This document shows positions 1,366 to 53,838 of a stretch of DNA of 64,000 bases, in pieces. The DNA is taken from the UHGV virus genome UHGV-0042229; one strand, written 5' to 3'. Made by a program: the position numbers and the translations under genes. The notes beneath the pieces are model-generated. The model ran no database searches and had not been told where the DNA came from. It was given only the letters and a program-made list of their open reading frames with translations. How positions within the stretch are numbered: position 1 is the first letter of the stretch; every line of letters begins with the position of its first letter. The DNA is from a virus.

Positions 1366-1575
1366 ATGGCTTTCATTCAACCAACCATCGACGACGTTAG
1401 ACATTGCTCTAACGCTTTATCTGTAGACCCTGCCGAAACCGACGCTGCCCGCGCCATTGCTGAACACTACTCAAAGATATCCAATCAGGAGTACCGCATC
1501 ACCCAAGACGACCTGGATGACCTCACTGACACAATCGAATATCTCATGGCAACTAACCAGTTAGACTCACAATAA
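1366..1575 (+). CDS. coi: C1 inactivator Coi (69 aa)
   Basis: 69-aa ORF directly upstream of c1, same strand, size and position as P1 coi; operator-like sites upstream. Confidence 0.85.
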   Translation: MAFIQPTIDDVRHCSNALSVDPAETDAARAIAEHYSKISNQEYRITQDDLDDLTDTIEYLMATNQLDSQ

Positions 1576-1685
1576 ATGCACTAATAAATCTATTATTTTT
1601 GTTTGATCCCTCTATAATATAGGTCAGTAATGACCGGTTTTCTCAGCCGGGCGTTATTGACCATGTCAATTCTGGAGGAGGATCA

Positions 1686-2537
1686 ATGATAAATTATGTC
1701 TACGGCGAACAACTGTACCAGGAGTTCGTCAGCTTCAGGGATCTCTTTCTAAAAAAAGCTGTTGCACGCGCCCAACACGTTGATACAGCCAGCGACGGTC
1801 GTCCTGTACGCCCGGTTGTCGTTCTACCGTTCAAAGAAACTGACAGCATTCAGGCTGAAATTGATAAATGGACTTTAATGGCGCGGGAACTGGAACAGTA
1901 CCCAGACCTCAATATCCCAAAGACTATTTTATATCCAGTGCCTAACATCCTTCGCGGTGTGCGTAAGGTTACAACTTATCAGACAGAGGCTGTGAACAGC
2001 GTCAACATGACCGCTGGCCGCATTATTCATCTGATTGATAAGGACATTCGCATCCAAAAAAGCGCGGGGATCAATGAGCACAGTGCGAAATACATAGAGA
2101 ACCTGGAAGCAACAAAAGAGCTAATGAAGCAGTACCCGGAGGATGAAAAATTCCGTATGCGCGTACACGGCTTTAGCGAAACAATGCTGCGCGTCCACTA
2201 CATTTCCAGTAGCCCTAACTACAATGATGGTAAATCAGTTAGTTACCATGTGCCACTGTGTGGCGTGTTTATCTGCGATGAAACTCTCCGTGATGGAATT
2301 ATCATCAACGGTGAATTCGAAAAAGCAAAATTTAGCCTTTATGACTCTATAGATCCGATCATCTGCGACCGCTGGCCGCAGGCAAAAATATATCGCCTGG
2401 CAGATATTGAAAATGTAAAAAAACAAATTGCCATCACTCGCGAAGAGAAAAAGGTCAAATCAGCCGCATCAGTTACGCGCAGCCGTAAAACCAAGAAGGG
2501 GCAGCCAGTAAACGACAACCCCGAAAGCGCGCAATAA
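1686..2537 (+). CDS. c1: C1 repressor of lysis (283 aa)
   Basis: 283-aa ORF starting MINYVYGEQLYQEFVSFRDLFLKKAVARAQHV..., recognised as P1 C1; cognate 17-bp operators recur across the window. Confidence 0.92.
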   Translation: MINYVYGEQLYQEFVSFRDLFLKKAVARAQHVDTASDGRPVRPVVVLPFKETDSIQAEIDKWTLMARELEQYPDLNIPKTILYPVPNILRGVRKVTTYQTEAVNSVNMTAGRIIHLIDKDIRIQKSAGINEHSAKYIENLEATKELMKQYPEDEKFRMRVHGFSETMLRVHYISSSPNYNDGKSVSYHVPLCGVFICDETLRDGIIINGEFEKAKFSLYDSIDPIICDRWPQAKIYRLADIENVKKQIAITREEKKVKSAASVTRSRKTKKGQPVNDNPESAQ

Positions 2538-2569
2538 ATTATGCCCGGCATCAACCGGGCATTCTTCCA

Positions 2570-3685
2570 TTATTCAGCCGCCACCGGTTTTAACAAGCCA
2601 GCATCGAGCAGTTTACGCGTCAACCACTGCTGGCCTTTACCCGTTAATTGAGGCGTCAACCGTATCTGGTAGCCATCTTCATCATCCAGCACCACTTCTT
2701 TCACCGTGAAATACCCCGCGTTGATGTACTGCTGGAACGGCACATTTTTACGTCCACCGGACGCTATCAGGATGCCGTTCTCCCGTAACCAGACAAACAG
2801 CGCGTTTTGCTTAAGTCCAACAACCTTTGCAAAATTCCCAATCAGGATCCCTTTAGCTACTGATACCCGGTCGGCAAAATCGACTTTAGGAGCGGCGGCC
2901 ACCAGCTGCTGATTTAGCTGGTGGGCTTTCTGTTCCAGAAGCTGCTTTTGTTCAGCCAGTTCGGCAGCCAGGCGCAGAGCTTCTGGAAGCGTCTGGGGGA
3001 TTGCAACCGGTTGCTGTTCTTTTTGCCGGAAGTAGCTGTCTTCCAGTTTTTCAAAGAATGCCCATGCCTGATCGGTTTCGAGCATTTTAGCGTGGCGGGC
3101 TGCGCCGCGTTCCGTCCAGAGGATGAGTGAGCGGGCTTTAGGAGAGATAGGATTTTGTGAGTTACTTAAAGTCACCCGCAAATTGTTCAAATCATCTCCA
3201 ATAACTTTATAGAAATGCTTACCTTCACAAAAACGTTCAGCATTACGGGAAAAGTTCTTCTTGATGTTATCCGCATCTGTCCCATACCCCTTAGCAAGGA
3301 TCTTAGTTGTCACTACACGCACTCCCTGCCACTCTAGAACGGGAATTTCATCCGGCTGACTTTGAACAACCACCAGTTCTGATTCCTGAACTAAAGGTGT
3401 ATTAATTTTTTCAGATTTAACGTTAGTAGCTTTCATTCTGTGTGCCTCCTTGCGTGTTTCGGCTGCGACGGTTGCGTAATTCAGATGCCCCTGTTCGAGC
3501 AGGTATTCACGGATATCAGACAGCAGGATACGGTGAACAGCGTTCTTGTCCTTTCTCCGGTAAAGTTGTTTGGTGATCATGAAGTAGTTGGCAATAACGC
3601 CAGGTATATCCCTGGTACTGATACAGGCAGTGTGCTGTTCAATTGCCTCGATCATCTCTTCACGGGTAACTAACGATGTTCTCAT
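2570..3685 (-). CDS. Antirepressor-like protein (371 aa), second ant copy
   Basis: N-terminal ~90 aa and C-terminal ~130 aa (PQTLPEALRLAAELAEQK...GNFAKVVGLKQNALF...QIRLTPQLTGKGQQWLTRKLLDAGLLKPVA) closely resemble the immI Ant at 50874-51917; central domain differs. ATGA overlap with upstream icd-like ORF. Confidence 0.75.
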   Translation of the reverse strand: MRTSLVTREEMIEAIEQHTACISTRDIPGVIANYFMITKQLYRRKDKNAVHRILLSDIREYLLEQGHLNYATVAAETRKEAHRMKATNVKSEKINTPLVQESELVVVQSQPDEIPVLEWQGVRVVTTKILAKGYGTDADNIKKNFSRNAERFCEGKHFYKVIGDDLNNLRVTLSNSQNPISPKARSLILWTERGAARHAKMLETDQAWAFFEKLEDSYFRQKEQQPVAIPQTLPEALRLAAELAEQKQLLEQKAHQLNQQLVAAAPKVDFADRVSVAKGILIGNFAKVVGLKQNALFVWLRENGILIASGGRKNVPFQQYINAGYFTVKEVVLDDEDGYQIRLTPQLTGKGQQWLTRKLLDAGLLKPVAAE

Positions 3686-3903
3686 AGTCCCTCCTGAGCA
3701 GAAGCGTTAACAGGGAGGCACCAGTAACTGAGAGAATTGCGTGAATCAGTGGAAAAACGGGCAGAGAAAATACATGGGGCGTCAGGAAGCTGAGAGCGGG
3801 CCTCATCTTCTGTCGGTGCAATAACGAAGTGATAGTGACGTTTTTGGCAGGAGTAAAAGCGCCAGATAAATTCAGGATGAGTTGGGGTAGGGATAGTAGC
3901 CAT
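3682..3903 (-). CDS. Icd-like protein (73 aa), second copy
   Basis: From ATG at 3903 with AGGAGG RBS: MATIPTPTHPEFIWRFYSCQKRHYHFVIAPTEDEARSQLPDAPCIFSARFSTDSRNSLSYW..., highly similar to the 73-aa icd at 51914-52135. The track ORF 3682-4131 is an in-frame upstream extension. Confidence 0.6.
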   Translation of the reverse strand: MATIPTPTHPEFIWRFYSCQKRHYHFVIAPTEDEARSQLPDAPCIFSARFSTDSRNSLSYWCLPVNASAQEGL

Positions 3904-3959
3904 ATTGGCAGCCTCCTTAGACGTTGGTATGTAACCACCGCAGAAGAGACCAATCTTGC

Positions 3960-4050
3960 TGGCGGTGGACTGTACGGAGTTGGCCTTACTGGCGTCCAAG
4001 GTAACCAGCCTACCCGAAGGTAGCCCCATACAGCCCACCATTGTAGAGGT
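3960..4050 (-). ncRNA. Putative c4-like antisense RNA of the second immunity module (approximate bounds)
   Basis: Segment aaccagcctacccgaaggtagccccatacagcccaccattgta parallels the presumed c4 region aaccagcaggccgaagcctccccatcacgccccaccataattt upstream of icd at 52226-52270; flanking loop sequence differs. Confidence 0.3.
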
Positions 4051-8801: not shown

Positions 8802-9182
8802 CTACTCCGCAGAACCATACAATCTACGTAACGTGTCGGCGACAGAAGATACAGATATCTCTCCGGTCGCAGCCCCTACGGTAAGGTCTGCCAGTTCAGG
8901 TGAATCAAATACCTGCACCCCGTTACGGCGTAGAAATAACAGCGCACTGTTTAGCGCGGTACGCTTATTGGCATCATTGAATATATGCCCTCTCGCTGTA
9001 GCCACCAGGTAGGTGGCGGAGACTTCGAAAAGGTCGGTGATCTCTTCGTAGGCAACTCTGGCCTGAACTCTCCCGATAATGGCCTCTGCCCTACCCGGAT
9101 CTGACATTCCCGGCAGGCCGCCGTAGCGGTTTATATTCGCATCATGAAGCGCAATAAGTTCTTCCGGTGATATATGCCTCAT
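8802..9182 (-). CDS. doc: Doc toxin (Fic/Doc family, 126 aa)
   Basis: 126 aa, [39 protein letters not shown]...[11 protein letters not shown]..., overlapping phd stop. Confidence 0.93.
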
Positions 9183-9403
9183 TATCGGTTAACCAGTTCC
9201 TTGTTGGTGGAGTCCAGGGTGTCAAACAGGGATGCAAATTCAGCATCCAGCGCCGCTTTTTTGTAGGCTTCGAAAGTAGCCTTGCTGACAATTACTGCTG
9301 GCTCACGGCCTCTGCGGGTGATTTCAACCTCTTCCCCGGCTTCAACATTGTTGAGCACTTCAGAAAGGTTGCCGCGCGCGGTACGGAAGTTAATGGATTG
9401 CAT
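9182..9403 (-). CDS. phd: Phd antitoxin (73 aa)
   Basis: [73 protein letters not shown] from ATG at 9403; track ORF starts 2 codons earlier at GTG. Confidence 0.93.
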
Positions 9404-9579: not shown

Positions 9580-11141
9580 ATGAAAATGACAAGTATTCAA
9601 CAACGTGCAGAGCTTCATCGTCAAATCTGGCAAATTGCTAACGATGTCAGGGGTTCGGTCGATGGATGGGATTTTAAGCAATACGTTCTGGGCGCACTTT
9701 TCTACCGTTTTATCAGCGAAAATTTTTCCAGCCATATGGAAGCCGGTGATGACAGTATCTGTTATGCGAAACTGGATGACAGCGTAATTACTGATGACAT
9801 TAAAGACGATGCCATCAAAACTAAAGGCTACTTCATCTACCCCAGTCAGCTTTTCTGCAACGTAGCTGCGAAAGCAAATACCAATGACAGACTGAATGCG
9901 GATTTAAACAGCATCTTCGTTGCTATCGAAAGTTCTGCTTACGGTTACCCTTCAGAAGCTGACATCAAAGGTTTGTTTGCTGATTTCGATACCACCAGTA
10001 ACCGCCTGGGTAACACCGTTAAGGATAAAAATGCCCGCCTGGCCGCGGTTCTGAAAGGGGTTGAAGGGTTAAAGCTTGGCGACTTTAACGAACATCAGAT
10101 TGACCTGTTCGGCGATGCCTATGAGTTCCTGATTTCTAACTATGCGGCAAATGCCGGTAAGTCAGGCGGTGAGTTCTTTACACCGCAGCACGTCTCCAAG
10201 CTGATTGCACAACTGGCTATGCACGGGCAGACCAGCGTTAACAAAATCTACGACCCGGCAGCGGGTTCCGGCTCACTGTTGTTGCAGGCGAAAAAACAGT
10301 TTGATAACCATATCATCGAAGAAGGTTTTTCGGTCAGGAAATCAACCATACGACCTATAACCTGGCGCGTATGAACATGTTTTTGCACAACATCAACTAC
10401 GACAAGTTTGATATCAAGCTGGGCAATACGCTGACTGAACCGCACTTCAGAGATGAAAAACCGTTTGATGCCATCGTTTCTAACCCGCCGTATTCGGTGA
10501 AATGGATTGGCAGCGATGACCCGACGCTGATTAACGATGAGCGTTTTGCCCCGGCTGGCGTTCTGGCCCCCAAATCCAAAGCTGACTTTGCGTTTGTATT
10601 ACATGCGCTGAACTATCTTTCGGCCAAAGGTCGTGCTGCGATTGTCTGCTTCCCGGGTATTTTTTACCGTGGCGGCGCAGAGCAGAAAATCCGTCAGTAT
10701 CTGGTCGATAATAACTATGTCGAAACCGTAATTTCACTGGCTCCGAACCTGTTCTTTGGCACCACCATTGCCGTAAACATTCTGGTTCTGTCCAAACATA
10801 AAACGGATACCAACGTTCAGTTTATTGATGCCAGCGAACTGTTCAAAAAAGAGACCAACAACAATATCCTGACCGATGCCCATATCGAACAGATTATGCA
10901 GGTATTTGCCAGCAAGGAAGATGTTGCTCATCTGGCGAAATCTGTTGCGTTTGAGACTGTTGTCGCGAATGACTATAACCTGTCGGTAAGCAGCTATGTG
11001 GAAGCCAAAGATACCCGCGAAGTTGTAGATATCACTGAACTGAATGCCGAACTGAAAACCACCGTCAGCAAAATCGACCAATTGCGCAAAGATATTGATG
11101 CGATTGTGGCTGAAATTGAAGGCTGCGAGGTGCAGAAATGA
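9580..11141 (+). pseudogene. hsdM: Type I R-M methyltransferase subunit HsdM (EcoR124-like), split by a -1 frameshift
   Basis: Track ORFs 9580-10374 (motif [11 protein letters not shown]) and 10371-11141 (motif IV NPPYS) are one HsdM. Frame breaks at GGTTTTTCGG (T5, 10326-10330): window reads [18 protein letters not shown], one extra T gives [25 protein letters not shown] joining the fragments. Confidence 0.8.
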
Positions 11142-12412
11142 GCGAGTTGAGTTATCTGGAAAAATTGCTGGATGGGGTTGAGGTTGAGTGGAAATCTTTG
11201 GGTGAAATTGCCACTAAAATTTACTCAGGGGGAACCCCGGATACAAAAAGAAAAGAGTATTGGGAGAATGGAACTATTCCCTGGATGAGTTCTGGCGAAG
11301 TGAACTTAAAAAATATTGAAAGGACAGAGAAATATATTACTGAGGCTGGATTAAATAACTCTAGTGCCAAATTAGTACCGAGAAACTCTGTAGTCATAGC
11401 CTTGGCTGGTCAGGGAAAAACTCGAGGTAAAGTAGCAAGAATCCGTATCGCATTAGCTACTAATCAATCACTTGCAGCACTTACATTTGATGAAAAGAAA
11501 TTCAGTTCCGATTACGTATTCCATTTTTTAGAGACTCAGTATGAGAGTTTGCGTCAAATATCATCTGGAAACAGCGGACGCGGCGGACTAAATCTGCAAA
11601 TGATTTCAGCATACAAAATCCCAATTCCCTGCCCGGATAATCCGGAAAAATCCCTTGCCATCCAGTCTGAAATCGTTCGGATTCTGGACAAATTCAGCGA
11701 GCTTACAGCAGAGCTTACAGCAGAGCTTAACATGCGTAAAAAACAGTACAACTACTATCGCGACCAGTTGTTGCGTTTTAAAGAGGGTGAGGTTGAGTGG
11801 AAGACTTTGGGGGAAATTGGAGATTTTACATATGGATATGCAGCCAAAGCCATGGATTCAGGAGATGCCCGTTTCGTGAGAATTACTGACATAAATAAAG
11901 ACGGGAAGCTATCGAAAGAAAACCCAATGTACGTTGAATTAAATGAGGAAAATGAGAAATATACCTTAGACAAAAATGATTTACTCATGGCAAGAACTGG
12001 GGCAACCTTTGGTAAAACAATGATTTTTGAAGAAGATTATCCAGCAGTATACGCTGGTTTTTTAATAAAGTTGAACCTAAATAAAACGATTATTAATGCC
12101 AAATATTACTGGCACTTTGCACAAAGTGATTTTTTTTGGGAACAGGCTAATAAATTAGTATCTGGTGGTGGGCAACCACAGTTTAATGCTAATGCACTGA
12201 AACAAGTCAGAGTACCTATTCCATACCCATCTCACCCTCAAAAATCTTTAGACGAACAGGGGCGTATTGTGGATATTCTGGATAAGTTTGATGCAATCGC
12301 AGCTTCCATCACCGAAGGTCTCCCGCGTGAAATCGAGTTGCGCCAGAAACAATACGAGTACTATCGTGATTTACTGTTCAGTTTCCCGAAACCTGAAACT
12401 GTCAGTAATTAA
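11138..12412 (+). CDS. hsdS: Type I R-M specificity subunit HsdS (424 aa), EcoR124 family
   Basis: ATGA overlap with hsdM; two target-recognition domains separated by a central region with tandem TAEL repeats. Confidence 0.88.
11705..11728 (+). repeat. Tandem 12-bp repeat (ACAGCAGAGCTT x2) encoding TAEL-TAEL in HsdS
   Basis: acagcagagctt at 11705-11716 and 11717-11728. In EcoR124I/II the TAEL copy number (2 vs 3) sets the spacer length of the recognition sequence. Confidence 0.8.
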
Positions 12413-12533
12413 TTGACCATTGCTACCGACCGGACCACCTTAACATCCGGTCTGTATATAGACTATTTTTTACGTGCCGGAAGTCACCCTTAACTCCCTT
12501 CCGGCCCTTGCCAGACGGCACAAAGGATGCGCT

Positions 12534-15500
12534 ATGACTCATCAGACACACACTATTGCTGAATCCAATAACTTTATCGTCCTTGATAAGTACATCAAAG
12601 CTGAGCCAACAGGCGACAGCTACCAGAGCGAATCGGACCTGGAACGTGAACTGATTCAGGACCTGCGGAATCAGGGCTATGAATTTATATCCGTAAAATC
12701 TCAGTCGGCTATGCTGTCCAATGTTCGGGAACAGCTTCAGAGCCTCAATGGTGTGGTGTTTAATGACAGCGAGTGGCGGCGTTTCACGGAGCAGTATCTG
12801 GACAACCCGAGCGATGGCATTCTGGATAAAACCCGTAAAATCCATATCGACTATATCTGCGACTTTATTTTTGACGACGGGCGACTTGAGAACATCTATT
12901 TGATAGATAAAAAGAATCTCATGCGCAATAAGGTGCAGATTATCCAGCAGTTTGAACAGACGGGTTCTCATGCTAACCGTTATGACGTCACGATCCTGGT
13001 TAATGGCTTACCACTGGTACAAATCGAACTGAAAAAGCGCGGCGTGGCGATTCGTGAGGCTTTCAACCAGATACATCGTTACAGTAAAGAGAGTTTTAAC
13101 AGCGAAAATTCCCTGTTTAAGTATCTGCAACTGTTTGTCATTTCTAACGGCACCGATACCCGTTACTTTGCCAACACCACAAAGCGCGATAAAAACAGTT
13201 TTGATTTCACCATGAACTGGGCGAAATCAGACAACACGCTGATTAAAGACCTCAAAGACTTTACCGCTACCTTTTTCCAGAAACATACTCTGCTGAATGT
13301 TCTGGTGAACTACAGCGTGTTTGACAGTAGTCAGACGTTACTGGTGATGCGACCGTACCAGATTGCCGCCACCGAGCGCATTCTGTGGAAAATTAAGAGC
13401 TCCTTTACAGCGAAGAACTGGTCAAAACCGGAAAGCGGTGGGTATATCTGGCACACTACCGGTTCTGGTAAAACCCTTACCAGCTTTAAAGCCGCGCGTC
13501 TGGCAACAGAGCTGGACTTTATTGATAAAGTCTTCTTTGTGGTCGACAGAAAAGACCTCGATTACCAGACCATGAAGGAATATCAGCGTTTTTCGCCAGA
13601 CAGCGTCAACGGCTCGGAAAATACCGCAGGCCTTAAACGAAATCTGGATAAGGACGATAACAAAATTATCGTCACTACTATTCAGAAACTCAATAACCTG
13701 ATGAAAGCAGAAAGCGACCTGCCTGTATATAATCAGCAAGTGGTGTTCATATTTGATGAATGCCACCGCAGCCAGTTTGGAGAAGCGCAGAAAAACCTGA
13801 AGAAGAAATTCAAACGCTATTATCAGTTTGGTTTTACCGGCACCCCTATTTTCCCGGAAAACGCCTTAGGCTCAGAAACAACCGCCAGCGTATTTGGTCG
13901 TGAATTGCATTCGTATGTAATTACCGATGCGATTCGTGACGAAAAAGTGCTCAAATTCAAGGTGGACTACAACGATGTGCGGCCACAGTTTAAGTCTTTA
14001 GAGACAGAAACTGACGAGAAAAAACTAAGTGCGGCTGAAAATCAGCAGGCGTTTCTTCATCCCATGCGTATTCAGGAAATCACGCAATATATTCTGAATA
14101 ATTTCCGCCAGAAAACTCACCGTACCTTCCCTGGCTCAAAAGGTTTTAATGCTATGTTGGCAGTGAGCAGCGTGGATGCCGCGAAAGCCTATTATGCGAC
14201 GTTTAAACGGTTACAAGAAGAAGCCGCTAATAAATCGGCTACCTATAAACCGCTGCGTATTGCGACAATCTTCTCCTTTGCCGCCAATGAAGAACAAAAT
14301 GCCATTGGTGAAATTTCCGATGAAACTTTTGATACCAGCGCAATGGACAGCAGTGCTAAAGAGTTTCTGGACGCTGCAATTCGTGAATATAACAGCCATT
14401 TTAAAACTAACTTTAGCACCGACAGTAACGGTTTTCAGAACTACTATCGTGATTTAGCCCAGCGGGTTAAAAATCAGGATATCGATCTGCTAATTGTCGT
14501 GGGGATGTTTTTAACCGGCTTCGATGCTCCAACATTGAACACGCTATTCGTCGATAAAAACTTGCGTTTTCACGGCCTGATGCAGGCATTTTCCCGCACC
14601 AACCGTATTTATGATGCAACTAAAACCTTCGGTAATATCGTCACTTTCCGGGATCTGGAACGCTCAACTATTGATGCCATAACGCTGTTTGGTGACAAAA
14701 ACACCAAAAATGTGGTGTTAGAAAAGAGTTATACAGAGTATATGGAAGGCTTTACTGATGCTACTACTGGTGAAGCTAAACGCGGCTTCATGACAGTAGT
14801 TTCAGAACTGGAACAACGGTTCCCTGACCCTACCAGTATTGAAAGTGAAAAAGAGAAGAAAGACTTCGTTAAACTGTTTGGCGAATACCTGCGTGCCGAG
14901 AACATCCTGCAAAACTATGATGAATTTGCCACGCTAAAAGCCCTGCAACAAATCGATCTTAGCGATCCTGTTGCGGTAGAAAAATTCAAAGCAGAACATT
15001 ATGTGGATGATGAAAAGTTCGCTGAATTGCAAACAATTCGTCTCCCTGCTGATCGCAAGATTCAGGATTATCGTTCTGCCTATAACGATATTCGCGACTG
15101 GCAGCGCCGTGAGAAAGAAGCTGAGAAAAAAGAGAAATCAACCACTGACTGGGATGACGTAGTTTTTGAGGTCGATTTGCTGAAGTCTCAGGAAATAAAC
15201 CTGGATTATATCCTTGGACTGATTTTCGAACACAACAGACAAAATAAAGGCAAGGGCGAAATGATCGAAGAGGTCAAACGCTTAATTCGTTCAAGCCTAG
15301 GGAACCGTGCTAAAGAGGGCCTGGTGGTCGATTTTATTCAGCAAACGAACCTGGATGATTTACCGGACAAAGCCAGCATCATTGACGCATTCTTTACGTT
15401 TGCTCAACGCGAACAGCAACGTGAAGCAGAAGCATTGATAAAAGAAGAAAATCTCAATGAAGATGCAGCAAAACGCTATATTCGCACGTCTTTAAAACGC

Positions 15501-15650
15501 GAATATGCCACCGAAAATGGCACAGAATTAAACGAAACATTACCAAAACTTAGTCCGTTGAATCCGCAATATAAAACGAAAAAACAGGCAGTTTTCCAGA
15601 AAATCGTCTCGTTTATTGAGAAGTTTAAAGGGGTAGGCGGAAAAATATAG
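12534..15650 (+). CDS. hsdR: Type I restriction enzyme R subunit HsdR (1038 aa), EcoR124-like
   Basis: From ATG at 12534 with AAGGA RBS: [33 protein letters not shown]...; helicase motifs (TTGSGKT, DECHRSQ). Track ORF starts 20 codons upstream at GTG. Confidence 0.9.
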
Positions 15651-16421: not shown

Positions 16422-16494
16422 ATGCCCTCCTCATTGGACGAAAAAAAATGCTGGTGGGCGCACTCCACCAGCATTAAAAGTGACACTGTAACTA

Positions 16495-31542: not shown

Positions 31543-34500
31543 ATACCCAAAACGTCATGAGCTACACCTCGAGTGTCCCCCTTACAAGACACAGAACGTC
31601 TGGCAAAAAGAGGTTCCACTCTGAAGCCACTGTCATGATAAAGCTCTCTGATGTTTGGCGCGCCACTGTTAGTAATGAGAACCTTTGCACCTCGACGATG
31701 AGCATCCGTCAACAGAGACACCAGGCGTTTTTGCTCTTCAAACTTAAAGTCATGACCGGAATAGTTCGTGAATCCCTCTGTATTTGGAAGCGGTTCATAC
31801 GGCGGATCGCAAAAGATGACATCTCCTTCTCCGGCAGCTTCAATCACCGCTGCAAAATCACCGCATACAAACTCAGACCGCCCTTCCGCACCGAGGAAGG
31901 CTTCCATCTCCTGTAATGGGAAATACGGAGTTTTATACTTCCCATAACCGACATTGAACTCACCGGCCTGGTTGTAGCGCGTCAATCCGTTAAAACAATG
32001 TCGGTTCAGGAACAAAAACGCCGCTGCGCGATGTAAATCATCATAGACTTGTTTGTTAAACGCATTCCGTACTGCCAAGTATCCCTCCTGGGTGTTGTAG
32101 TCCAGGAAAAAACGATGTGCCAGAGTGATAAGTGAATGCTCCTCGCGTTGCAGAGTCTTGTAAAAGTTAATCAGGTCAGCATTCACATCATTTAGCAGAT
32201 TTTCCTGGTATCCGGCATTCATGAAGACAGCTCCGCCACCGACGAAAGGTTCAATCAGGCGCTTCCCTTCTGGCAAATAGCGAAAGATTTGTTCCAGAAC
32301 ACCAAATTTTCCACCGGCCCATTTGAATATGGACCGTTCGAATTCTGCCGCTGGTTTAACTTTTCGCTCTTTTGTTTCACTTCCTTCTTTCTGCCGACAT
32401 ACGGCCTTAGTAATCCGATCGCCAATCCAGCGCATTACTGGTATTGCCATACTATTGCCGATCGCTTTGTAACGCGGTCCGTCAGCTGCAAGCATTGCGG
32501 CCTCTTCTTCGCTTAAATCTGGATAGTGATTGTGCAGATATGCCAGTTCATCTGAATTAACTTTTTTACGCTTTTCCGTAGGGATCAACGTATGCCAATC
32601 AGGAAAACCTTGCAGCCTTTCACATTCGACAGGGGTAAGACGGCGCATTCTACCGTCGCCGAGCAATACAATTGGTGCTTCATGGTTACATGTCAAAGTT
32701 GGTGCCGAATTATCGGTTTTTATCTCAGCCCCTCCTTGCCCATGTGCCATGGCAATTATGTTTGTATCATCGCAAGTTCTGATAGCGATGTTTGAAGTAT
32801 ATCTGGTAGTTTCCTTCCCCTCGCCTCTGCTCGGCGCAATATTCCGGCGCACGCCTTCGAACTCAAAAAGTACCGTTGCGGGATCGAGGTCTGTTCGAGC
32901 ACTTGCGACAACAAACACGCGTCGGCGTCGTTGTGCCACTCCGAAGTATTGGGCATCAAGGATTCTCCAGGCCACTTTTCGCTGCGGTCCATAAATACAA
33001 CCACACTGCGGCCACTTTGGAGCATGGCAACCGGTTTTGACATCCCACCGCCAGAATGCGTTACTTTTTCCTGATTCAGGTCGATCACCTGGTTCGAATG
33101 GCGCATCTTCTCCAGCCAATCCGGCAAGGAAACATCCGAAGGCGTTATCTGCCGATGACAAGACTCCTGGGACATTTTCCCAGACGATAACGGCTGGTTT
33201 GAGAAATGACTCAGCCCGTTTGTCGTCAATTGCATTTGCAAGCTCCACATACTTTAAAGTTAGCGCGCCACGCTCATCATCAAGCCCACCACGTAATCCA
33301 GCGATACTGAATGCCTGACAGTTATGGACCACCGCACCATTGAGGATATAGGAATGATCACCTTCGACTTCTATGTTGTATACAGTATCTAGGCCTACCG
33401 ATTTAAACTCTTTGACTGTTCGTAAAAGCATTCCATGAGCCAATCTTGATTTACGTGACAATTTCTGCGGGCAGATTGTTACCTGATAATAATTCCGTTG
33501 ATTTACCACGCGATCCTCAATCACTTTTTTGGGCTTAACTTCAATAAAGCTGACCGAAGAAACATAACCACAAGTCTGTGACAACTCCGCAACGCCCCAA
33601 GCAAGCGCAGGACTAACACTATTAATTCTAAATCCCGCTTTACCACTTGGTGTCCCATCAGTATCAAGATAGCCTTGTAAAAACACATGACGCAATGGAT
33701 GCGACATAACCCATGCAGGGATACGCTTAGCATGGCTTAACTCGCCAAAATGTTCATTAAGCCAATTGGCATAACACGTATCATTCAAGGTTACTTTGAT
33801 GCTCCCTCGGATTTCGCTTGCCACGGAAAATATGTTTTCTGGTATGCGGCAATGAAACTTTCTCAATTTCTGGCAATTTATGCCAAAAACAACCGCCTTC
33901 TTAGATTTACCTCTCCATCTCCTAATATATCCATCGCCAACATAAGCGCCCGCAAGATACATAGCCTGTTCTTCAGACAAGAACCGAGAACAAATATCTG
34001 GAGATGCAATATTGAAATTAGTTAGAGCACACCATTGATATCCCGGCATATCACATGCTGCTCGCCATTCCGGTTCAGACAACAACTCTCTCTTAAAATA
34101 TGTGCCATTTTTCCGGGTGTTTTGGGCTTTCCACCGAACCGCCAGGAAGGGATGGTCATTGGTTGTTCTTATACCTAAAGGCTGCCCAACGGCATTAAGT
34201 AACCCCGTATTAGCTATTTTTGAACCAACTCTTTTTACTTGTTGTAACCGCCCGAGATGACTGACTACGTAATCGCCAGGGCAAACATCTTCTATTGGTT
34301 TATAACCATTTTTACAAAGAACCATATGCCCCGCGGTAAAACATGGTGTCCCTCCCACCAGCACATCAGGGGCTTCAATTTCTCCAGCCTGGACTTTTTG
34401 GGCGAGTTTTGTCATGTCGCCAAGGTTGGCGACATGGGGCCAGTGGTACGCAAGAACGGCAGATGGAAAAGGCTCGATTTCAGCAAACCACGCCGGACGC

Positions 34501-34574
34501 ATACCCAACGGTTCCCAGGCAATACTCGCGGCTTCAATTCCACTGCAAACAGATCCATAGCACAGCTCTTTCAC
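31533..34574 (-). CDS. dmt: Bifunctional DNA methyltransferase Dmt (C5-cytosine MTase N-domain + Dam-like N6-adenine MTase C-domain), interrupted by an in-frame intein; 1013 codons
   Basis: N-domain C5-MTase motifs (VLVGGTP|CQAFSIAG split, [16 protein letters not shown]); C-domain Dam-like ([26 protein letters not shown]). GTG start overlaps upstream gene stop. Confidence 0.85.
33321..34343 (-). mobile_element. Intein (341 codons) with LAGLIDADG homing-endonuclease domain, inserted in the PCQ motif of the Dmt C5-MTase domain
   Basis: Begins [13 protein letters not shown]... (block A Cys1), contains IRTTNDH (block B TxxH), LAGLIDADG-like [13 protein letters not shown] and [13 protein letters not shown], ends ...[11 protein letters not shown] followed by +1 Cys of CQAFSIAG. 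Residues 78-418 of the ORF; in frame, no stops. Confidence 0.8.
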
Positions 34575-50873: not shown

Positions 50874-51917
50874 TTAACCTATTGCTACTGGTTTTAACAA
50901 ACCAGCATCAAGTAGCTTGCGAGTTAACCACTGCTGGCCTTTACCCGTTAATTGGGGCGTCAGCCGTATCTGGTAGCCATTTTCATCATCCAGCACCACT
51001 TCTTTCACCGTGAAATACCCGGCGTTAATGTACTGCTGGCGCGGTACGTTTTTGCGCGCACCAAAAGCCATGAGAATGCCGTTCTGGCGCAACCATGAGA
51101 AAAGGGCGTTTTGCTTAAGTCCAACGACCTTTGCAAAGTTCCCGATCAGGATTCCATTAGCCGCTGATACCCGGTCGGCAAAATCGACTTTAGGGGCTGC
51201 GGCCACCAGCTGTTGTTCCAACTGCATTTTCTGTTCTGCCAACTCGGCAGCCAGGCGTAGAGCGTCTGGTAATGTTTGGGGGATCGATGGGGCAGGGGAG
51301 TTTGCCTGCTGCAATTCTTCCAGTTTGTCGATCAGCGAACGGCGGACTGCTTTTGACTCGCGCGCGGCGACTCGCAGGGCTTGTTTGTAGGTCATGGTTA
51401 TGACAACCATAGGCGTACCGCCACCTGGCGGCACGGTTGCACTTTTTGTGTAACCGTCCTCACCTTCTAATTCGTCGAGTATTTTTTTGATGAATTTGTT
51501 GTTCCGAACCTCTGGTTCCCCACATAACTTACGCGCTTCATTGACCATCTTTAACAGCGTCTGGCTGTCGATTGTGTCTCCAGTGTTGGAGATAACATTC
51601 ACAGCTGGTGATGGCGTAGCTGAAGCAACAGATGCTGGTTTTTTAACATTCAAATTATTACTGGTCATTCTATGTGCCTCCTTTCTCATTTCTGCTGCCA
51701 CCGTTGCGTAACGTAGACGTCCTTGTTCAATCAAATAATCCCTGATCTCGGCTATCAGTAGCCTGTTGATCACAGCCTTATCTGTTCGGGTATAAAAACG
51801 TCTGGTTATCATGAAATAGTTGGCAATTGCGCCGGGGATCTCCCGTGTCGGCATACAGGCAGTATGCAGTGCGATCGCTTCGGCTATGTCATTACGGGTG
51901 ACGAGAGGTTTTTTCAT
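50874..51917 (-). CDS. ant: Antirepressor Ant (347 aa) of immI
   Basis: ATGA overlap with icd; C-terminal Ant domain; order c4-icd-ant-kilA-repL as in P1. Confidence 0.8.
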   Translation of the reverse strand: MKKPLVTRNDIAEAIALHTACMPTREIPGAIANYFMITRRFYTRTDKAVINRLLIAEIRDYLIEQGRLRYATVAAEMRKEAHRMTSNNLNVKKPASVASATPSPAVNVISNTGDTIDSQTLLKMVNEARKLCGEPEVRNNKFIKKILDELEGEDGYTKSATVPPGGGTPMVVITMTYKQALRVAARESKAVRRSLIDKLEELQQANSPAPSIPQTLPDALRLAAELAEQKMQLEQQLVAAAPKVDFADRVSAANGILIGNFAKVVGLKQNALFSWLRQNGILMAFGARKNVPRQQYINAGYFTVKEVVLDDENGYQIRLTPQLTGKGQQWLTRKLLDAGLLKPVAIG

Positions 51918-52449: not shown

Positions 52450-52466
52450 AAATTTATTAGAGCAGA
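52450..52466 (-). promoter_or_regulatory. C1 operator-like site (Op51-like) upstream of immI
   Basis: aaatttattagagcaga, 15/17 to reverse-complement consensus. Confidence 0.6.
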
Positions 52467-52747
52467 TTAGTGTCGTGCAATAGATATATTATTTGTGATG
52501 AAAAATAATGCAGAGGGATATTGTAACTTTAAGATGGATATCAATAGTCGATACATAAATTAAGTTAGCAATAAACTATTAACTTAAGAAATAATGCAGA
52601 TGGTGAACTTGTCTCTGACTTTTCAGCTATACACAATAAGTTAGGGATAGCTTATAAAAAGTTGATTAATTGATATAAGTCAATGGGAGTATTCTTGTTT
52701 ACTTTCCGTTCTCGTGGTAACTTCTCGCCGGTTTTTGTTTTTCTGGG

Positions 52748-53269
52748 ATGATTCTTATGTCTAAAAAGTATACTTTATGCGCTCTTGTTGTATCTGCAAT
52801 TCTTCTTTCTGGGTGTCAATCTAGCGGTGCTGATTATGCTGCCGATGTTTATGATACCGCTCAATTGAATTCGAAGCAGGAAACAAAGACAGTCAATATT
52901 ATCTCTGTGCTTCCAGCTAAAGTGAAAGTTGATAATAAAGCTAATAAAGAAGCGGCACAGACATTTGGTGCGGTACTGGGAGCTGTTGCTGGGGGCGTTG
53001 CCGGTTATAATGTTAAAGGCACATCGACACTGGGTGCTGTAGCTGGCGGTACTGGTGGTGCGGCTCTTGGTGCAGCGGCTGGTTCTTTGGTTAGTGATAA
53101 AACAATTGTTGAAGGTGTTTCACTGACTTATAAAGAAGGAACTAAGGTGTTCACTTCAACTCAAGTTGGTAAAGCATGCCAGTTTACAACGGGGCTTGCT
53201 GTGCTTATTTCAACTAAAGATAATGAAACTCGAATTCAGCCAAATGCTACTTGTCCAGAAAAGAAATAA
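52748..53269 (+). CDS. Outer-membrane lipoprotein with glycine-zipper (173 aa)
   Basis: Signal peptide with lipobox LLSGC; Gly-zipper GAVLGAVAGGVAGY...LGAVAGGTGGAALGAAAGSL; AT-rich codon usage. Confidence 0.65.
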   Translation: MILMSKKYTLCALVVSAILLSGCQSSGADYAADVYDTAQLNSKQETKTVNIISVLPAKVKVDNKANKEAAQTFGAVLGAVAGGVAGYNVKGTSTLGAVAGGTGGAALGAAAGSLVSDKTIVEGVSLTYKEGTKVFTSTQVGKACQFTTGLAVLISTKDNETRIQPNATCPEKK

Positions 53270-53272
53270 TTT

Positions 53273-53812
53273 ATGAATAAAATTATTTTATTTCTAATCT
53301 TTTCTACGTTTAGTGTAGGCACTGCCTTGGCTAACTCGTTGCAAAGTCAAATTGCTGCTATTGCTCAAGCGGAAAATGAAGGGCGAGCTAAAGAGCAGCA
53401 AGCTGAGGATGCCAGAAAAGAACTTATTCGCCAACAAGCACAAGCTGAACGTATTAGAAGAGAAAAAGCAGCATCTGCCGCTGCTGCACGCGAAAAACAG
53501 CGTGTTGCTGCAGAAAATGAACGTAGAGCGAAACGAGAAGCCGAGCTAGCAAATGACAAGAAGCGAGATCAAGCTTATGAGGATGAGCTTCGCAAGCTGC
53601 AACTCGAAAGCATGAAACTCGAACTGCAAGCAAAAGCGGCTCGTGTCCAGCGAGAAAACGATTTTATAGAGCAGGAGTTGAAGGAGAGAGCAGCTAAGAC
53701 AGATGTAATTCAGTCTGAGGCTGATGCAAATAGAAATATTTCTACAGGAAGTAAAGATTTACTGCAAAGCGAAGGAAAAGCTAGAGAGAAGAAAGCTAGC
53801 AGTTGGTGGTAG
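53273..53812 (+). CDS. Secreted charged coiled-coil protein (179 aa)
   Basis: N-terminal signal peptide MNKIILFLIFSTFSVGTALA; remainder K/R/E/A-rich coiled coil. Confidence 0.6.
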   Translation: MNKIILFLIFSTFSVGTALANSLQSQIAAIAQAENEGRAKEQQAEDARKELIRQQAQAERIRREKAASAAAAREKQRVAAENERRAKREAELANDKKRDQAYEDELRKLQLESMKLELQAKAARVQRENDFIEQELKERAAKTDVIQSEADANRNISTGSKDLLQSEGKAREKKASSWW

Positions 53813-53838
53813 TAATCGCTACGATTGCGAGCATACTG

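Follow-up and report, generated by a model that had tools for sequence, protein, structure and literature searches.

The stretch of DNA analysed here, hereafter the window, comprises 64,000 nucleotides of the viral genome UHGV-0042229. It carries the three genes of a type I restriction-modification system, hsdM, hsdS and hsdR, of which the first is broken at a short run of T, together with an addiction module that lies next to them. The features needed for the argument, in window coordinates, are the following:

8802..9403, minus strand: doc and phd, the P1 addiction module, immediately upstream of hsdM and divergent from it
9586..10374, plus strand: 5' fragment of hsdM, with 248 native residues and a 14-aa out-of-frame tail, containing the HsdM_N domain and motif I
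10326..10330, plus strand: T5 run in which the 1-nt deletion lies; GGT TTT TTC GGT (T6) is the reading in the nearest intact alleles
10331..11141, plus strand: 3' part of hsdM, shifted to the -1 frame with respect to the 5' fragment, residues 250-518, containing motif IV
11138..12412, plus strand: hsdS, intact, 424 aa, with two Methylase_S domains (target recognition domains) and EcoR124-type conserved regions
11705..11728, plus strand: tandem 12-nt units, two copies of ACAGCAGAGCTT, coding for TAEL-TAEL within the central conserved HsdS region (LTAELTAEL)
12534..15650, plus strand: hsdR, intact, 1038 aa, a full-length match to EcoR124I HsdR

The hsd operon and its phage-plasmid carrier

The deletion site in hsdM (9586-11141) can be read directly from the letters: the junction across the break is GGTTTTTCGG, and positions 10320-10339 read AGAAGGTTTTTCGGTCAGGA. 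Translated from the ATG at 9580 or 9586, frame 0 runs to ...IIEEGF, continues for 14 out-of-frame residues and ends at the TGA of 10372-10374, and the -1 frame is open through NPPY (SNPPYS) to the stop at 11139-11141. The upstream ATG at 9580 is an alternative start that gives MKMTSIQ, matching the deposited EcoR124II HsdM. A first-pass annotation, made from the sequence, had claimed that hsdM is split by a single-base deletion at this T5 run and that a T6 would rejoin the fragments, and the same tract and change of frame are read here; one T added after 10330 restores a 1557-nt ORF of 518 aa, which aligns end to end with EcoR124II HsdM. Its further statement that neither fragment holds motifs I and IV together is also borne out, motif I (DPAAGSG, residues 223-229) lying on the 5' fragment and motif IV (NPPY, residues 300-303) on the 3' fragment. 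The longest ATG-initiated ORF of the 3' part starts at Met263 (10371-11141, 256 aa), the 5' fragment is called as a 262-aa gene on identical metagenome contigs, and residues 249-262 of HsdM are absent from both called ORFs. With the frame lost after codon 248, a complete HsdM capable of forming M2S1 would not be encoded. To judge from how closely the gene otherwise follows a characterised enzyme, to which it is near-identical, the break is not a chance pattern of ORFs. The tetranucleotide ATGA forms an overlap at two sites of the operon, within hsdM at 10371-10374, where the ATG of Met263 meets the stop created by the frameshift, and at the hsdM/hsdS boundary at 11138-11141, where the start of hsdS overlaps the stop of hsdM. 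The premature stop in hsdM could reduce the translation of hsdS, through loss of coupling or polarity, unless re-initiation occurs.

By its domains, alignments and gene order, the hsdM-hsdS-hsdR cassette belongs to the EcoR124 family (type IC), which is classically delimited by complementation, the exchange of subunits between type IC enzymes. The T-restored HsdM (residues 1-518) shows ~98.5% identity to EcoR124II HsdM (PDB 7BST chain D, residues 3-520), with ~7 substitutions, and matches the Pfam families PF12161 and PF02384 (HsdM_N, N6_Mtase). HsdS and HsdR had been described as intact, and their lengths of 424 aa and 1038 aa and complete domains agree with that description. HsdR aligns over residues 1-1038 with EcoR124I HsdR (PDB 2W00), the EcoR124_C domain being found in both, and its Pfam matches (PF04313, PF18766/PF04851, PF22679 and PF12008) provide the motor, the nuclease and the EcoR124-type C-terminus. 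The N-terminal, central (TAEL twice) and C-terminal conserved regions of HsdS align with EcoR124 HsdS (7BST chain A), whereas both of its target recognition domains are unlike those of EcoR124, so that the specificity differs. The gene order is common to the window and to EcoR124I/EcoR124II of plasmid R124; in contrast, the carrier is a P1-like phage-plasmid in the window and a conjugative plasmid for EcoR124, and the -1 frameshift in hsdM is a feature of the window, not of EcoR124.

Judged by synteny and identity with the core genes of P1 (c1, pacAB, lpa, phd/doc, repA-parAB and tail genes were considered), the window is a P1-like phage-plasmid (Punavirus), assembled from a human gut metagenome. 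P1, P7, SJ46 and a large number of P1-like plasmids are collinear with it; its first 25 kb are mostly 96-98% identical to P1, P7, SJ46, RCS47 and vB_EcoM-673R5, and also to more than 100 plasmids of E. coli, Salmonella and Klebsiella of roughly 90-120 kb. Intact hsd cassettes are known on the P1-like plasmids pD72-mcr1 (NZ_CP035313.1), p20170604CC-1 (NZ_AP025210.2) and pLR-48_1 (NZ_AP027544.1) and in phage vB_EcoM-673R5. These records have in common with the window the backbone and the insertion site on the phd/doc side, the cassette being placed between phd/doc and a PNKP-like gene in the window as in pD72-mcr1, and their hsdM, hsdS and hsdR segments are identical or near-identical to those of the window. 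In all of them hsdM is annotated as complete at 518 aa, whereas that of the window is one T short.

Generally poor sequence quality was considered as a source of the break and rejected after a gene-by-gene comparison of the 64 kb with pD72-mcr1, in which hsdM is the sole broken gene. About 65 pD72-mcr1 proteins are found in the window at full length and without internal stops, and only hsdM is split by a change of frame. The other indels of the window relative to pD72-mcr1 are few, and all lie in intergenic or divergent stretches; they include intergenic homopolymer or short indels at 16441 (A8 vs A7), 50862 (T6 vs T7) and 15854, which leave the genes unaffected.

Allele relationships and occurrence of the T5 form

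Segment by segment, the broken operon recurs in intact operons elsewhere. From nt 529 to 1557, hsdM equals the intact hsdM of NZ_AP025210.2 and NZ_CP079777.1, the missing T apart. A 101-nt stretch in the 5' part of the gene, where the sole two amino-acid differences of that part (H50/M51) fall, matches the intact, annotated hsdM of NZ_CP062905.1 and eight other plasmids at 100% identity. The first 1202 nt of hsdS are identical to an allele found on at least 24 contigs, including other E. coli, and in seven of the eight places listed this allele stands beside a 517-518-aa HsdM, the eighth having an IS-truncated hsdM. The exact HsdR protein occurs in 259 index blocks and has an intact 518-aa HsdM as its neighbour in each of the nine other places listed. 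With every other part of the operon recurring in intact operons, the lesion appears to be single, recent and lineage-specific.

Two other histories were tried and set aside. An older decay would be expressed in lineage-specific substitutions, which were sought in hsdM, hsdS and hsdR, and each compared segment equals an allele that is intact elsewhere. A new HsdS specificity that forced the loss of hsdM as an escape from self-restriction was rejected on the recognition domains, which are identical to those of an allele living with intact hsdM in many isolates. The exact HsdS protein of the window is confined to the T5 lineage. The operon as a whole (9586-15650) is a recombination mosaic of allele types: the first 528 nt of hsdM belong to one type; the rest of hsdM and hsdR belong to another, closest to NZ_AP025210.2; the recognition domains of hsdS are of a third, the pLR-48_1 type; and the last ~70 nt of hsdS are of yet another.

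The T5 form itself was found in metagenomes. A 41-mer carrying T5 is absent from both the 5,426 complete E. coli genomes and PLSDB, and a T5 33-mer from both IMG/VR and the GTDB species representatives; the T6 version is present in 17 E. coli plasmids, annotated as subunit M in ten of the ten rows listed. The T5 33-mer is present in the metagenome contig UMFS01051056.1. Both hsdM fragments, together with the exact HsdS, occur on seven contigs from ENA, NCBI and Logan, which may share one person or run, so that their agreement stands for reproducible assembly and not for independent occurrence. Over all fetched stretches, which extend to flanks of as much as 20.8 kb, the T5 contigs show 100% identity to the window. 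The ENA contig (ERZ910759, run ERR209739, 91,089 bp) comes from human gut in PRJEB1220, a longitudinal human gut cohort, and the two T5 contigs whose records are shown are both human gut metagenome assemblies.

Interpretation of the missing base

We consider it likely that the T5 run in hsdM is a real and recent loss-of-function frameshift that leaves the system r- m-, an ordinary knockout and no programmed switch. Among the three options that the first-pass annotation had left side by side, recent mutational inactivation is best supported, a homopolymer error is unlikely and an ON/OFF switch is not supported. That the base is truly missing in the DNA is inferred from assemblies rather than from reads, and a real loss is favoured because three assembly sources reproduce T5. 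If instead the DNA had T6, with hsdM intact and the system functional, one homopolymer base would be expected as the sole defect in an operon that otherwise matches functional alleles, and this is what is seen; the T5 allele is moreover in none of the isolate genomes searched, and all T5 contigs could come from one sample series. Against such a sequencing or assembly error, to which we give a rather small probability, stand the identical T5 and the 100% identical flanks in seven contigs of three assembly sources, the absence of any other broken gene among the ~65 compared and the lack of a homopolymer-indel excess in the 64 kb. De Bruijn assembly requires that the k-mers of a contig recur in the reads, and one T5 contig is a k=127 de Bruijn contig, which on assembler principles means that T5-spanning k-mers recur in the reads. 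Short-read platforms are not error-prone at homopolymers of 5-6 nt, and a run of this length would not be error-prone if such a platform was used.

The break falls exactly at a mononucleotide run, where a +1 change would reverse it, and type I hsdM genes whose phase variation works through repeat length are known (PMC7383803; PMC12707154), as in H. influenzae and M. haemolytica, where the methylase is likewise lost by a repeat frameshift, in pentanucleotide tracts (PMC7383803). It is nonetheless very improbable that the T run is a slipped-strand contingency locus turning the whole restriction-modification system ON and OFF. The survey of Atack et al. (2020, PMC7383803) requires at least 9 nt in a mononucleotide tract before an hsd gene is called phase-variable, and the run has five T in the window and six in the parent allele. 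The simple repeats of phase-variable hsdM genes lie mostly near the 5' end (PMC7383803), whereas this run lies mid-gene, at codon 248 of 518. Known phase-variable hsdM genes have long repeats (at least nine mononucleotides, or multi-unit) whose length varies between strains; in contrast, among 160 relatives (80 IMG/VR and 80 GTDB genomes) the T run varies from 2 to 8 nt, with a length set only by synonymous Gly and Phe codons, and is out of frame in none of the 160. At this site all 160 encode in-frame Gly-(Phe/Tyr)-(Phe/Tyr/Trp)-Gly-Gln-Glu, of which Gly-Gln-Glu is invariant, and the T run is a by-product of Gly-Phe-Phe coding.

Searches with length-variant k-mers, which covered T5 and T6 forms, point the same way. 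A second allele (GGC TTT TTT) is present in its T6 form in 92 records and in its T5 form in none among the 5,426 complete E. coli genomes; taken with the first allele, the T5 forms of two alleles number zero in these genomes, compared with 17 and 92 records for the T6 forms. A recurrent hot spot or switch was rejected on the T5 searches of the two alleles and the 160 relatives, which contained no length variant. Short HsdM entries in the same protein clusters were also followed up, and they are truncations in the native frame, most of them annotated 'partial', without out-of-frame tails.

A further reading would keep hsdM functional in spite of the break, through slippage by -1 on the U run, of the ribosome or during transcription, or through a split methyltransferase, and it is the one to which we give almost no credence. 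A -1 shift of tRNA-Phe from UUU 10327-10329 to UUU 10326-10328 would restore the native ...GFFGQE, and the ATGA overlap at 10371-10374 could permit re-initiation. The zero-frame codons are, however, GGU UUU UCG, which provide no in-phase X XXY YYZ heptamer, and only the P-site codon could re-pair. The 90 nt downstream of the break fold no better than shuffles (z = -0.84), and these 90 nt are identical to those of intact alleles, which argues that no frameshift stimulator has evolved. None of the 160 relatives uses a frameshift at the site, and heptamer, stimulatory structure and conservation in relatives, the marks of a programmed -1 site, are all wanting at the hsdM T run. Efficient transcriptional slippage needs a run longer than U5, and the U5 at hand is too short for it. 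Both products of a split enzyme would be without residues 249-262, among them Gly-Gln-Glu (residues 250-252), which all 160 relatives share and which by comparison with gamma-class methyltransferases we take to be motif II, involved in AdoMet binding. Programmed frameshifting and a split enzyme were rejected on the anatomy of the site.

As a speculation of very low probability, the T5 allele might be a real r- m- variant that gut E. coli keep stably and that is not fully null, traces of native HsdM arising from re-initiation at ATGA or from a rare -1 slip of the P-site tRNA-Phe on U UUU UCG. If this were true, modification would be weak and restriction negligible, a state of 'methylate but do not restrict' that could ease the spread of the phage-plasmid to new hosts.

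Predicted phenotype and meaning

Returning to the frameshift as a real knockout, one T would have been lost from the Gly-Phe-Phe run (GGT TTT TTC to GGT TTT TC), probably by ordinary replication slippage. Translation would leave the native frame after Phe248 and terminate 14 codons further on, a re-initiated product from Met263 would lack motif I, and Gly-Gln-Glu (250-252) would be in neither product, so that no active M2S1 methyltransferase core could form. In systems of this type methylation is carried out by M2S1 and cleavage by R2M2S1. Neither modification nor restriction proceeds without HsdM, and HsdS depends on M2 for binding DNA (PMC12707154). Because HsdM serves both activities and HsdR requires M2S1, the system is expected to be off without being lethal: HsdR would be active only when docked on M2S1, modification and restriction would both be lost, and self-restriction would not follow. 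The predicted phenotype, r- m- and non-lethal, is consistent with established type I biology. The lesion would be very recent, marking either the onset of decay or a selected loss of function, and neutral and selected loss are indistinguishable from sequence.

The hsd cassette has also been knocked out on other P1-like plasmids, there by insertion sequences and in no case by a point frameshift. IS1 truncates hsdS in pBL12EC-2, in strains DAM and ANT the hsdM/hsdS match contains IS5, and hsdM is truncated by an IS at its 5' end on a contig of ERR3328802. The loci with these other routes of inactivation (IS1, IS5 and 5' truncation) are found at NZ_CP079777.1 7832-9332, in NZ_JBQXPD010000002.1 and at 1518-4028 of the ERR3328802 contig. 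The knockouts by IS in other lineages show that the cassette is dispensable and its loss tolerated, and the window adds one more case to a P1-like hsd cassette with varied lesions, a point frameshift here and insertion sequences elsewhere. For annotation, the locus is best described as a type IC system of the EcoR124 family whose hsdM is a frameshifted pseudogene; it is predicted to be inactive and should not be counted as a working defence. Both the type of system and the kind of phage-plasmid are already known, and the case introduces no new mechanism or question.

The window differs from pD72-mcr1 in further respects. Three stretches, 29500-30000, 33320-34341 and 52464-53836, are without a counterpart in pD72-mcr1 and form variable accessory regions, of which 33320-34341 is an insert in a gene at 31533-34574 (minus strand). 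This gene encodes a double methyltransferase like Dmt of P1 (C5 and Dam-type N6A) and has 1013 aa, compared with 754 aa for its pD72-mcr1 counterpart; the additional ~1 kb has matches to Hint and LAGLIDADG domains, and these point to the insert being an intein with a homing endonuclease, placed in the C5-methylase part. Genes for tRNA-Met (CAT), tRNA-Thr (TGT) and tRNA-Asn (GTT) lie on the minus strand at 29200-29275, 30707-30782 and 30785-30860. Two KilAC/ANT antirepressor paralogues, at 2579-3685 and 50883-51917 (both minus strand), are each preceded by an icd-like gene and share a stretch of 330 nt with 86% identity (2580-2908 and 50884-51212).
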